Origin: Escherichia coli
Lineage (GTDB): Bacteria; Pseudomonadota; Gammaproteobacteria; Enterobacterales; Enterobacteriaceae
Assembly: GCF_017348835.2 (NCBI RefSeq)
Contig: NZ_CP071375.1
Strand: one strand, 5' to 3'
DNA length: 64,000 nucleotides
Numbering within the stretch: the first letter of the stretch is position 1; every line of letters begins with the position of its first letter. Below the pieces are notes generated by a model. The model had not been told where the DNA came from. It saw nothing but the letters and a program-made list of their open reading frames with translations, and made no database searches. Below are positions 14,150 through 63,916 of this stretch, piece by piece. The position numbers were made by a program, and so were the translations under genes.

Positions 14150-14180
14150 TTAACCATTCCCATACAATTAGTTAACCAAA

Positions 14181-14211
14181 AAGGGGGGATTTTATCTCCC
14201 CTTTAATTTTT
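14181..14211 (+). terminator. Terminator-like hairpin after clpX (AGGGGGGAT-TTTA-TCTCCCCT followed by T-rich run)
   Basis: Imperfect G/C stem followed by TTTAATTTTT. Confidence 0.45.
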
Positions 14212-14226
14212 CCTCTATTCTCGGCG

Positions 14227-14253
14227 TTGAATGTGGGGGAAACATCCCCATAT
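14227..14253 (+). promoter_or_regulatory. Sigma-32 (heat-shock) promoter of lon: -35 TTGAAT, 13-bp spacer, -10 CCCCATAT
   Basis: Near-consensus sigma-32 elements read about 85-110 nt upstream of lon ATG; coordinates consistent with the lon start frame. Confidence 0.7.
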
Positions 14254-14336
14254 ACTGACGTACATGTTAATAGATGGCGTGAAGCACAGTCGTGTCATCT
14301 GATTACCTGGCGGAAATTAAACTAAGAGAGAGCTCT

Positions 14337-31907: not shown

Positions 31908-32021
31908 GGGGGCTCTGTTGGTTCTCCCGCAACGCTACTCTGTTTACCAGGTCAGGTCCGGAAGGAAGCAGCCAAGGCAGATGACGCGTGTGCCGGGATG
32001 TAGCTGGCAGGGCCCCCACCC
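31908..32021 (+). ncRNA. ffs: 4.5S RNA (signal recognition particle RNA), 114 nt
   Basis: Exact match to remembered 4.5S RNA sequence GGGGGCUCUGUUGGUUCUCCCGCAACGC...GGCAGGGCCCCCACCC; conserved SRP domain IV motif GGAAGGAAGCAGCC present; coordinates frame-checked against overlapping ORF-track translation. Confidence 0.95.
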
Positions 32022-46871: not shown

Positions 46872-47423
46872 ATGACCGCGACTGCACAGCAGCTTGAGTA
46901 TCTCAAAAATAGCATCAAAAGCATTCAGGACTACCCAAAACCCGGCATTCTTTTCCGCGATGTCACCAGCTTACTGGAAGACCCGAAAGCTTACGCTCTC
47001 AGCATCGACTTGCTGGTTGAGCGTTACAAAAATGCGGGCATTACCAAAGTTGTCGGCACCGAAGCGCGTGGCTTCTTGTTTGGCGCTCCGGTAGCTCTGG
47101 GTCTGGGCGTTGGCTTTGTGCCGGTCCGTAAACCGGGCAAACTGCCGCGTGAAACCATCAGTGAAACTTACGACCTGGAATACGGCACCGATCAGCTGGA
47201 AATCCACGTTGATGCCATCAAACCGGGCGACAAAGTTCTGGTGGTGGACGATCTGCTGGCAACCGGCGGCACTATCGAAGCGACCGTTAAACTGATCCGT
47301 CGTCTGGGTGGTGAAGTGGCTGACGCTGCGTTCATTATCAACCTGTTCGATCTCGGCGGCGAACAGCGTCTCGAAAAACAGGGCATTACCAGCTACAGCC
47401 TTGTCCCGTTCCCGGGCCATTAA
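46872..47423 (+). CDS. apt: Adenine phosphoribosyltransferase Apt, 183 aa
   Basis: ORF-track 46818..47423; start at [30 protein letters not shown]; PRPP-binding motif [13 protein letters not shown]. Confidence 0.95.
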
Positions 47424-47551
47424 TTATCGCCAGTCTTGTGCTGCCCACGCTACGGACAGCACAAGATGTGCATTCAGCCTCGCCGTTCTGACGGGGCTGT
47501 GTTAGCATTACCCCTTCGTGAATCCACCTTCCAGCGTTTCAGAGCCTGCCA

Positions 47552-48846
47552 ATGAGTTATCAGGTCTTAGCCCGAAAATGGCGCCCACAAACCTTTGCTG
47601 ACGTCGTCGGCCAGGAACATGTGCTGACCGCACTGGCGAACGGCTTGTCGTTAGGGCGTATTCATCATGCTTATCTTTTTTCCGGTACCCGTGGCGTCGG
47701 AAAAACCTCTATCGCCCGACTGCTGGCGAAGGGGCTAAACTGCGAAACCGGCATTACCGCGACGCCGTGCGGCGTGTGCGATAACTGTCGTGAAATCGAG
47801 CAGGGGCGCTTTGTCGATCTGATTGAAATCGACGCCGCCTCGCGCACCAAAGTTGAAGATACCCGCGACCTGCTGGATAACGTCCAGTACGCTCCGGCGC
47901 GTGGTCGTTTCAAAGTTTATCTCATCGACGAAGTGCATATGCTGTCGCGCCACAGCTTTAACGCACTGTTAAAAACTCTTGAAGAGCCGCCGGAGCACGT
48001 TAAGTTTCTGCTGGCGACGACCGATCCACAGAAATTGCCGGTGACGATTTTGTCGCGCTGTTTGCAATTTCATCTCAAGGCGCTGGATGTCGAGCAAATT
48101 CGCCATCAACTTGAGCACATCCTCAATGAAGAACATATCGCTCACGAGCCGCGGGCGCTGCAATTGCTGGCGCGCGCCGCTGAAGGCAGCCTGCGAGATG
48201 CCTTAAGTCTGACCGACCAGGCGATTGCCAGCGGTGACGGCCAGGTTTCAACCCAGGCGGTCAGTGCGATGCTGGGTACGCTTGACGACGATCAGGCGCT
48301 GTCGCTGGTTGAAGCGATGGTCGAGGCCAACGGCGAGCGCGTAATGGCACTGATTAATGAAACCGCTGCCCGTGGTATCGAGTGGGAAGCGTTGCTGGTG
48401 GAAATGCTCGGCTTGTTGCATCGTATTGCGATGGTACAACTTTCGCCTGCTGCACTTGGCAACGACATGGCCGCCATCGAGCTGCGGATGCGTGAACTGG
48501 CGCGCACCATACCGCCGACGGATATTCAGCTTTACTATCAGACGCTGTTGATTGGTCGCAAAGAATTACCGTATGCGCCGGACCGCCGTATGGGCGTTGA
48601 GATGACGCTGCTGCGCGCGCTGGCGTTCCATCCGCGTATGCCGCTGCCTGAGCCAGAAGTGCCACGCCAGTCCTTTGCACCCGTCGCGCCAACGGCAGTA
48701 ATGACGCCACCCCAGGTGCCGCCGCAACCGCAATCAGCGCCGCAGCAGGCACCGACTGTACCGCTCCCGGAAACCACCAGCCAGGTGCTGGCGGCGCGCC
48801 AGCAGTTGCAGCGCGTGCAGGGAGCAACCAAAGCAAAAAAGAGTGA
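47552..48846 (+). CDS. dnaX: DNA polymerase III gamma subunit, 431 aa, produced by programmed -1 frameshift at 48835-48841 then Glu and TGA stop at 48844-48846
   Basis: Slippery heptamer A AAA AAG in frame at codons 428-430; -1 frame reads GAG TGA immediately after; established mechanism. Confidence 0.85.
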
Positions 48847-49483
48847 ACCGGCAGCCGCTACCCGCGCGCGGCCGGTGAATAACGCTGCGCTGGAAAGACT
48901 GGCTTCGGTCACCGATCGCGTTCAGGCGCGTCCGGTGCCATCGGCGCTGGAAAAAGCGCCAGCCAAAAAAGAAGCGTATCGCTGGAAGGCGACCACTCCG
49001 GTGATGCAGCAAAAAGAAGTGGTCGCCACACCGAAGGCGCTGAAAAAAGCGCTGGAACATGAAAAAACGCCGGAACTGGCGGCGAAGCTGGCGGCAGAAG
49101 CCATTGAGCGCGACGCGTGGGCGGCTCAGGTGAGTCAACTTTCGCTACCAAAACTGGTCGAACAGGTGGCGTTAAATGCCTGGAAAGAGGAGAGTGATAA
49201 CGCAGTATGTTTGCATTTGCGCTCCTCTCAGCGGCATTTGAACAACCGCGGTGCACAGCAAAAACTGGCTGAAGCGTTGAGCATGTTAAAAGGTTCAACG
49301 GTTGAACTGACTATCGTTGAAGATGATAATCCCGCGGTGCGTACGCCGCTGGAGTGGCGTCAGGCGATATACGAAGAAAAACTTGCGCAGGCGCGCGAGT
49401 CCATTATTGCGGATAATAATATTCAGACCCTGCGTCGGTTTTTCGATGCGGAGCTGGATGAAGAAAGTATCCGCCCCATTTGA
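47552..49483 (+). CDS. dnaX: DNA polymerase III tau subunit DnaX, 643 aa (full-length product)
   Basis: ORF-track full length; Walker A GTRGVGKTS; zinc-binding CGVCDNC. Confidence 0.97.
   Translation: MSYQVLARKWRPQTFADVVGQEHVLTALANGLSLGRIHHAYLFSGTRGVGKTSIARLLAKGLNCETGITATPCGVCDNCREIEQGRFVDLIEIDAASRTKVEDTRDLLDNVQYAPARGRFKVYLIDEVHMLSRHSFNALLKTLEEPPEHVKFLLATTDPQKLPVTILSRCLQFHLKALDVEQIRHQLEHILNEEHIAHEPRALQLLARAAEGSLRDALSLTDQAIASGDGQVSTQAVSAMLGTLDDDQALSLVEAMVEANGERVMALINETAARGIEWEALLVEMLGLLHRIAMVQLSPAALGNDMAAIELRMRELARTIPPTDIQLYYQTLLIGRKELPYAPDRRMGVEMTLLRALAFHPRMPLPEPEVPRQSFAPVAPTAVMTPPQVPPQPQSAPQQAPTVPLPETTSQVLAARQQLQRVQGATKAKKSEPAAATRARPVNNAALERLASVTDRVQARPVPSALEKAPAKKEAYRWKATTPVMQQKEVVATPKALKKALEHEKTPELAAKLAAEAIERDAWAAQVSQLSLPKLVEQVALNAWKEESDNAVCLHLRSSQRHLNNRGAQQKLAEALSMLKGSTVELTIVEDDNPAVRTPLEWRQAIYEEKLAQARESIIADNNIQTLRRFFDAELDEESIRPI
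48835..48875 (+). other. dnaX: dnaX programmed ribosomal frameshift cassette: slippery site A_AAA_AAG (48835-48841) plus downstream stem-loop CCGGCAGCCGCTACCCGCGCGCGGCCGG (48848-48875)
   Basis: Heptamer and GC-rich hairpin 6 nt downstream read directly; frame verified from the dnaX start. Confidence 0.9.
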
Positions 49484-49520
49484 TCGTAAGCACAGCTTAC
49501 GTTCGTCATCCTTAACGTGA

Positions 49521-49864
<344 letters not shown>

Positions 49865-49865
<1 letters not shown>

Positions 49866-50470
49866 TGCAAACCAGCCCGCTGTTAACACAGCTTATGGAA
49901 GCACTGCGCTGTCTGCCGGGCGTTGGCCCGAAGTCGGCGCAGCGTATGGCGTTCACGCTGCTTCAGCGCGATCGTAGCGGCGGGATGCGTCTGGCGCAGG
50001 CGCTCACCCGGGCGATGTCGGAAATCGGCCACTGCGCCGATTGCCGCACTTTCACCGAACAGGAAGTCTGTAACATCTGTTCGAATCCGCGTCGTCAGGA
50101 AAACGGTCAAATCTGTGTGGTGGAGAGTCCGGCGGACATTTACGCCATTGAGCAGACGGGGCAGTTTTCAGGTCGTTATTTTGTGTTGATGGGGCATCTG
50201 TCACCGCTGGACGGCATCGGTCCGGATGATATCGGGCTTGATCGTCTGGAACAGCGTCTGGCAGAGGAAAAAATCACTGAAGTGATCCTCGCCACCAATC
50301 CCACGGTTGAAGGTGAAGCTACCGCTAACTACATTGCCGAGCTTTGCGCGCAATATGACGTGGAAGCCAGCCGAATCGCTCATGGCGTACCGGTTGGCGG
50401 CGAACTGGAAATGGTCGATGGCACCACGTTGTCGCATTCCCTTGCCGGGCGTCATAAGATTCGTTTTTAA
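49865..50470 (+). CDS. recR: Recombination protein RecR, 201 aa
   Basis: ORF-track full length; C4 zinc finger ([16 protein letters not shown]); Toprim region; start overlaps ybaB stop (TGATG). Confidence 0.96.
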
Positions 50471-50499
50471 GCAAACGAGAGCAGGATCACCTGCTCTCG

Positions 50500-50528
50500 C
50501 TTGAAATTATTCTCCCTTGTCCCCATCT
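50500..50528 (+). promoter_or_regulatory. Sigma-32 (heat-shock) promoter of htpG: -35 CTTGAAA, 15-bp spacer, -10 CCCCATCT
   Basis: Near-consensus sigma-32 elements read about 50-80 nt upstream of htpG ATG. Confidence 0.7.
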
Positions 50529-53279: not shown

Positions 53280-53410
53280 TCAAGCCGCAGCAGATCTGCT
53301 TTCGGGCAGGTCTGCTCATCCACCTCAGGCAATACCTCTCACAGCAATTAGTTCTTCTTCCTCACTTTTCCGCTACAATTATCAACAAGTTGAATCGATA
53401 AGAGGCGGTA

Positions 53411-56794: not shown

Positions 56795-56890
56795 GGTTCG
56801 TAGGCCAGATAAGGCGTTCACGCCGCATCTGGCATTTGGCATCTCGATGCCTGATGCGACGCTGGCGCGTCTTATCATGCCTACATATTT
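56795..56890. repeat. REP/BIME: two inverted REP units after gsk
   Basis: GTAGGCCAGATAAGGCGTTCACGCCGCATCTGGCA and GATGCCTGATGCGACGCTGGCGCGTCTTATCATGCCTAC. Confidence 0.8.
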
Positions 56891-62560: not shown

Positions 62561-62644
62561 ACACCGTCGCTTAAAGTGACGGCATAATAATAAAAAAATG
62601 AAATTCCTCTTTGACGGGCCAATAGCGATATTGGCCATTTTTTT
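62561..62644 (+). ncRNA. chiX: ChiX (MicM/SroB) Hfq-dependent small RNA, about 84 nt, with terminator hairpin GGCCAATAGCGATATTGGCC plus U7
   Basis: Sequence ACACCGTCGCTTAAAGTGACGGCATAATAATAAAAAAATGAAATTCCTCTTTGACGGGCCAATAGCGATATTGGCCATTTTTTT matches remembered ChiX including seed CUCUUUGACGGG; coordinates frame-checked. Confidence 0.9.
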
Positions 62645-63574: not shown

Positions 63575-63916
63575 ATGAAACAGGCAACAAGAAAACCGAC
63601 GACACCCGGAGATATTCTTCTCTATGAATATCTGGAACCGCTCGCTTTGAAAATCAATGAGTTAGCAGAGTTGCTGCATGTTCATCGTAATAGCGTCAGT
63701 ACACTGATCAATAATAATCGTAAACTCACCACTGAGATGGCATTCCGTCTGGCGAAAGTTTTTGATACCACAGTCGATTTTTGGCTAAACCTCCAGGCGG
63801 CAGTTGATCTTTGGGAAGTTGAAAACAACATGCGCACCCAGGAAGAATTGGGACGGATTGAAACAGTGGCTGAATATTTGGCACGCCGTGAAGAGCGTGC
63901 AAAAAAGGTCGCGTAA
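63575..63916 (+). CDS. ybaQ: XRE/HigA-like helix-turn-helix protein YbaQ, 113 aa (in-frame upstream ATG at 63521 would give 131 aa)
   Basis: ORF-track 63521..63916; start at MKQATRKPTTPGDILLYEYLEPLALKINELAELLHVHRNSVSTLINNNRKLTTEMAFRLAKVF (HTH). Confidence 0.85.
   Translation: MKQATRKPTTPGDILLYEYLEPLALKINELAELLHVHRNSVSTLINNNRKLTTEMAFRLAKVFDTTVDFWLNLQAAVDLWEVENNMRTQEELGRIETVAEYLARREERAKKVA

Follow-up and report, generated by a model that had tools for sequence, protein, structure and literature searches.

The programmed -1 ribosomal frameshift cassette of dnaX in a chromosomal segment of Escherichia coli

A single long open reading frame (ORF) spans positions 48820-48880 of the 64,000-nucleotide stretch of Escherichia coli DNA analysed here (the window). 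This ORF is located on the plus strand at 47552-49483, and its zero-frame product is the 643 amino acid protein tau, the translation of which begins with MSYQVLARKWRPQTF from the ATG at 47552. The translated product matches the NCBIfam equivalog NF005942 'DNA polymerase III subunit gamma/tau' (Bitscore: 981.5; cutoff: 613), and comparison against Pfam identified the clamp-loader AAA+ module (DnaX delta2/AAA; residues 20-178), the DnaX lid (residues 182-230), domain III (residues 232-358), the DnaB-binding tau domain IV (residues 417-498) and the alpha-binding tau domain V (residues 500-640). On the evidence of its sequence, the gene hosting the frameshift cassette described below is dnaX. Its nucleotide sequence is 100% identical only to those of E. 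coli strains PE164 and F2_81, both of which are pig isolates, while the next-best matches are found in O157:H7 strains (99.2% identity). Comparison of the first 503 codons (1,509 nt) with the K-12 gene revealed 17 nucleotide differences and two residue differences, with Thr in place of the K-12 Ala at residue 271 and Pro in place of the K-12 Thr at residue 387.

The window as a whole is collinear with positions 444552-508643 of the K-12 chromosome, with which it shares ~98.6% identity. Collinearity is broken only in the adk-hemH spacer (53281-53333), which is 53 nt long in the window as compared to 157 nt in K-12 (497821-497977), and this difference in length may be due to a repetitive extragenic element that one of the two carries and the other lacks. 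Rfam matches above the gathering score were furthermore obtained for sraA (14170-14265, minus strand), the 4.5S SRP RNA gene ffs (31916-32012, plus strand), the REP-type element naRNA4/CssrE (56803-56881, plus strand) and sroB/ChiX (62561-62644, plus strand), all of which are expected in this part of the E. coli chromosome.

The slippery heptamer A_AAA_AAG is located at 48835-48841 on the plus strand, where the letters of 48820-48880 read gggagcaaccaaagcAAAAAAGagtgaaCCGGCAGCCGCTACCCGCGCGCGGCCGGtgaat and the zero-frame translation across the site is AKKSEPAAATRARPVN. Since (48835-47552) mod 3 = 2, the first base of the heptamer is the third base of codon 428 (GCA), and the remaining six bases constitute codons 429 (AAA; 48836-48838) and 430 (AAG; 48839-48841). 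A wrong start codon or frame is excluded by the full-length identity of the ORF to annotated dnaX. Translation in the -1 frame from 48841 yields 'E*', the codons GAG (Glu) and TGA (stop) at 48841-48846, such that the shifted product, gamma, would comprise 430 + 1 = 431 amino acids. A sequence-only reading of this stretch had claimed an in-frame A AAA AAG at codons 428-430, followed in the -1 frame by GAG and TGA and giving rise to a 431 amino acid gamma subunit. Both claims were borne out, the first by frame arithmetic from the ATG, by which the heptamer stays in the A_AAA_AAG register, and the second by the -1 translation. Codon 430, at which the shift would occur, falls within tau domain IV (417-498), and gamma would as such lose nearly all of domain IV and the whole of domain V.

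Upstream of the heptamer, and separated from it by 10 nt, lies an internal Shine-Dalgarno-like (SD-like) stimulator, AGGGAG (48819-48824, plus strand). This third known stimulator was omitted from the sequence-only reading, of which all the named elements were otherwise recovered. The sequence 5'-AGGGAG-3' can presumably pair with 3'-UUCCUC-5' of the 16S rRNA anti-SD, with the inclusion of one G-U pair. AGGGAG was also considered as the driver of an internal translation start, but the closest start-like codon, a GTG (48843-48845), lies 18 nt downstream and out of frame, and this candidate was rejected.

It could be argued that the heptamer is an accident of Lys-Lys coding and that the downstream hairpin simply follows from the coding sequence being G+C-rich, neither of them serving to recode in this strain. 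The bare AAAAAAG motif is indeed not rare, as 22 copies occur in the window against 15.25 expected. By contrast, the composite signal AGGGAG-N10-AAAAAAG has a single match in the window, while 100 shuffled sequences contained none. The register speaks against a coding accident as well, in that the dnaX site is the only one of ten heptamers within stop-to-stop ORFs of at least 200 amino acids that is read as A_AAA_AAG, the other nine being read as AAA_AAA_G. Two of the AAAAAAG copies occur further downstream in dnaX itself (48965-48971 and 49043-49049, both on the plus strand) and were rejected as shift sites, as they are in the AAA_AAA_G register (Lys-Lys-Glu/Ala), which is not shift-prone. 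A second heptamer in the shift-prone A_AAA_AAG register can be observed at 63901-63907 (plus strand), three codons before the stop of an ORF homologous to K-12 ybaQ (...REERAKKVA*), where slippage to -1 would exchange the final two residues for an extension ~11 amino acids long (GRVRPKHRFIS). No AGGGAG-like element is present upstream of this ybaQ heptamer and the downstream sequence folds weakly (-5.6 kcal/mol). The ybaQ site is probably background rather than programmed.

The remaining element, the 3' stimulatory hairpin, extends from 48847 to 48876 on the plus strand, as supported by both RNA folding and the Rfam consensus pairs. Its lower stem is formed by 48847-48852 with 48871-48876 and is separated by a 1x1 mismatch (A48853, G48870) from the upper stem, in which 48854-48858 pair with 48864-48866 and 48868-48869, C48867 is bulged and the loop UACCC (48859-48863) is enclosed. 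The sequence-only reading had placed a G+C-rich stem-loop 6 nt after the heptamer, and had proposed folding of 48842-48880 as a check. Folding of this region returned the hairpin with a minimum energy of -19.1 kcal/mol, and the G-C stem (48848-48875), the 3' end of which coincides with the end proposed for the cassette in that reading, follows a 6-nt spacer, AGUGAA. An outer A-U pair, 48847-48876, is added by both the minimum-energy fold and the Rfam consensus, so that the spacer is 5 nt in length when this pair is counted and 6 nt when it is left out. Taken by itself, the hairpin gives only a modest thermodynamic signal (z = -2.33; 3/200 shuffles fold as well), because the local sequence is G+C-rich, and this low z-score is a second point in favour of a by-product of coding. 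We relied on covariation for support of the hairpin, rather than on the z-score of its energy against shuffled sequences.

Taken together, these elements make up a 65-nt cassette (48816-48880, plus strand), which is matched along its full length by the Rfam model RF00382, the DnaX ribosomal frameshifting element (cmscan; model positions 1-65 of 65; Bitscore: 96.8; gathering score: 35; E-value: 3e-21). The features by which this family is recognised in sequence were all found, namely a dnaX coding sequence, the register, the -1 stop, the stem-loop, the SD-like element and a score above the threshold. Only one other candidate, STnc460 at 49334-49423, emerged from a permissive Rfam scan of 47000-50500, and this was dismissed as a chance match (Bitscore: 25.3; gathering score: 70; E-value: 0.11). 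The cassette coincides with a RefSeq sequence_feature, in that the 'DnaX frameshifting element' annotated in strain PE164 (L001 4265-4329) corresponds to 48816-48880 of the window with identical bases, while in K-12 MG1655 the gamma coding sequence (492092..493386) is joined from two pieces and ends at the homologous TGA. All 65 nt are identical in the K-12 element, which shares the SD-like AGGGAG, the 10-nt spacer, the heptamer, GAG-UGA and the 11-bp interrupted hairpin, as well as the host gene and the codon position (428-430), with no difference within the cassette. The elements named in the sequence-only reading are accordingly all present and unmutated, as it had stated. The identity to K-12, where the cassette has been experimentally proven, and the published mutagenesis (PMC5389563) already refute the reading of the heptamer and hairpin as a coding accident, which we regard as extremely improbable. 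We conclude, with a probability of about 97%, that 48816-48880 represents the programmed -1 ribosomal frameshift cassette of E. coli dnaX. This is a textbook element that is routinely annotated, and the earlier interpretation of it was correct.

Within E. coli, matches to dnaX and the element were found in 5,424 of the 5,426 complete genomes. Across 5,069 of these the whole dnaX gene is 95-99% identical to that in the window, while in 5,401 genomes a 101-nt segment with the cassette at its centre shows an identity of at least 99%. The frameshift element is more conserved than the rest of dnaX in E. coli. Furthermore, none of the 17 differences between the window and K-12 in the first 1,509 nt of dnaX fall between 48711 and 49029. 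The dnaX match is absent from two of the 5,426 genomes and, in two others, is located on a record that bears a plasmid label. Coverage of the 101-nt query fell below 80% in four genomes, as for example in the O157:H7 strain Z1833 (78/101 nt).

To extend the comparison beyond E. coli, one genome per species was scanned with the pattern AGGGAG-N10-AAAAAAGAGTGA, which matched at least 120 loci. This pattern fixed the SD-like element, the spacing, the heptamer and the GAGTGA, and the hairpin is therefore the only unbiased observation in the cross-species sample. Approximately 75 Enterobacterales species are represented among the matches listed, and in these the site is always located in a DnaX-like ORF and in the same register, with a hairpin folding at the same offset in each locus (-18 to -30 kcal/mol). 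In an alignment of 63 distinct Enterobacterales sequences, 87.4% of the cells are paired under the E. coli structure, as opposed to 29-53% once the 3' partners have been moved by one to three columns. The closing pair 32-61 (48847-48876 in the window) is A-U in 42 and G-C in 19 of the 63 sequences, while a single switch from G-C to A-U, in Mixta, is seen at pair 36-57. Locus L054 has also exchanged a G-C for an A-U pair in its upper stem, and the position of the bulge has moved in loci L010 and L095. RNAalifold, applied de novo to the 63-sequence alignment, recovered the lower stem but no more than one pair of the upper stem, since the register of the latter varies between lineages. When the sequences were folded one by one, an upper stem of 4-5 bp was found to be kept in every lineage.

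At least three lineage-specific designs of the upper stem can be distinguished among the listed Enterobacterales, though the amino acids they encode are not the same. Enterobacter, Serratia, Buttiauxella, Pantoea, Erwinia and Mixta resemble E. coli in their lower stem (CCGGC/GCCGG), in the 1x1 mismatch and in where the hairpin is placed. These genera share the SD-like element, spacing, heptamer and -1 stop as well, but those were fixed by the search pattern. The upper stem of E. coli and Citrobacter is of the form GCCGC...GCG-C-GC with a 5-nt loop, while that of Enterobacter, Serratia and Buttiauxella is GCGC/GCGC with an 8-nt loop. Pantoea, Erwinia and Mixta carry GCGC(G)/(C)GCGC with a 3-5-nt loop, and their stem is closed by G-C instead of A-U. 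Judged from these sequences, the hairpin is kept by means of compensatory changes while the amino acids change, as structural constraint predicts. This pattern across genera provides a further argument against a coding accident.

In the insect symbiont Candidatus Pantoea persica (L053:2968-3036, minus strand), dnaX keeps the SD-like element, the heptamer and GAGTGA. By comparison with the Pantoea locus L015, however, it carries a 12-nt in-frame deletion by which most of the upper stem and the 3' arm are lost (GCCGGCAGCG-T-CGGC). This constitutes a natural near-deletion of the hairpin, which collapses. The different upper-stem and loop designs and the deletion in Ca. Pantoea persica might be taken to reflect selection for different gamma:tau ratios, as opposed to neutral drift in which a hairpin of some kind is kept, but we consider such selection unlikely.

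The pattern scan also returned matches that are unrelated to frameshifting. Approximately 40 loci in Collinsella (for example L035:9769-9796, minus strand) combine a real Shine-Dalgarno sequence, AGGGAG, with a GTG start codon, and were rejected as coincidental matches rather than frameshift sites. The ORF concerned encodes ~457 amino acids, begins with M-P-K-K-S-E-S and lies 11 codons from an upstream stop, and the matched sequence is nearly invariant across many species, with at most one or two substitutions. Single matches in Pirellulaceae, Thermoplasmata, Flavobacteriales, Clostridium and others, which displayed neither similarity to dnaX nor a hairpin, were attributed to chance. An enterobacterial dnaX cassette was found on NODE_1 of an assembly named 'Chryseobacterium sp. 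18061' (L066:3021-3089, plus strand). It differs at two loop bases from the cassette of Citrobacter sp. 18056 (L063), which derives from the same study, and the DnaX alignment scores of the two are equal (2760). The 'Chryseobacterium sp. 18061' assembly is likely mislabelled or contaminated.

For the frameshift itself, its efficiency and its kinetic mechanism, we infer from published work on the identical sequence, while the elements, register, spacing, conservation and covariation are drawn from the present analysis. A single tRNA-Lys with the anticodon mnm5s2UUU is expected in the host, and would read both AAA and AAG. On reaching A_AAA_AAG, the ribosome would hold two tRNA-Lys, on AAA in the P site and on AAG in the A site. 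The G+C-rich hairpin 5-6 nt downstream would by then be positioned at the mRNA entrance, where it would impede translocation driven by EF-G, while the AGGGAG located 10 nt upstream would pair with the anti-Shine-Dalgarno end of the 16S rRNA and pull the mRNA backwards. A large fraction of the ribosomes (~50% in vivo) would re-pair both tRNAs one base in the 5' direction, on AAA AAA, after which they would read GAG (Glu), stop at UGA and release the 431 amino acid gamma. The latter would keep the clamp-loader domains I-III but have neither domain IV, which binds DnaB, nor domain V, which binds alpha, while ribosomes that do not slip would produce the 643 amino acid tau.

The published experiments provide values for each of these elements. 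Slippery A AAA AAG, SD and downstream hairpin have been described as the three frameshift signals of dnaX, and in vitro translation of dnaX mRNA results in 84% frameshifting, which falls to 50% when AGGGAG is mutated to AUAUCA, to 20% when the hairpin is deleted and to 2% with the non-slippery G AAG AAG (PMC5389563). In E. coli, 50% of the ribosomes translating dnaX slip into the -1 frame and end translation one codon further on, giving a gamma:tau ratio of 1:1, and the single tRNA-Lys of this species forms a stronger pairing with AAA than it does with AAG (PMC5009743). On the basis of the identical K-12 sequence, -1 frameshifting at ~50%, with the production of gamma, is predicted for the strain under study.

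Other bacteria arrive at the same outcome, tau and gamma at ~1:1 from one gene, by different routes, with RNA polymerase slippage on a longer A run in Thermus thermophilus and proteolytic cleavage in Caulobacter, in contrast to ribosomal -1 slippage in E. coli (PMC5009743). Either route could in principle be proposed for the window. Transcriptional slippage is a documented alternative means of producing gamma in Thermus (PMC5009743), and a homopolymeric A run is present at the dnaX site. However, this run comprises only six A, as compared to runs of nine A or T in bacterial cases of such slippage (PMC5009743). Both the covarying downstream hairpin and the upstream SD-like element at its fixed spacing are signals directed at the ribosome, for which transcriptional slippage has no need. 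The 84% frameshift product was moreover obtained by in vitro translation of a defined dnaX mRNA (PMC5389563), and the K-12 literature already points against appreciable A7 or A5 dnaX transcripts. We therefore see hardly any likelihood that gamma arises through slippage of RNA polymerase in this strain. The proteolysis of tau to gamma, documented in Caulobacter crescentus (PMC5009743), would render the cassette irrelevant, but it is at odds with the 50% of ribosomes that shift to -1 in E. coli and end one codon later (PMC5009743). Proteolysis also leaves unexplained why a perfect slippery site should be followed within one codon by a -1 stop. This stop and the annotated joined coding sequence fit frameshifting, and a proteolytic origin of gamma appears highly implausible here.

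The programmed ribosomal frameshift of dnaX also finds parallels in transposase genes of the IS3 family (IS911, IS150), the shift sites of which are likewise A_AAA_AAG and often have an SD-like stimulator on the 5' side and a structure on the 3' side (PMC5009743). The share of IS elements with an SD stimulator is estimated at 56% (PMC5009743). In the IS3-family elements two ORFs are joined by the shift to give a longer product, whereas the shift in dnaX cuts the protein short after one codon. There are further differences in the host gene and in the type of structure, with IS911 containing a three-way junction (PMC5009743).

The intact cassette in the window only confirms that this is an ordinary segment of the E. 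coli chromosome, and opens no new question. Among bacteria, the dnaX cassette serves as the standard model of -1 programmed frameshifting, and it fixes the tau:gamma stoichiometry in the clamp loader.
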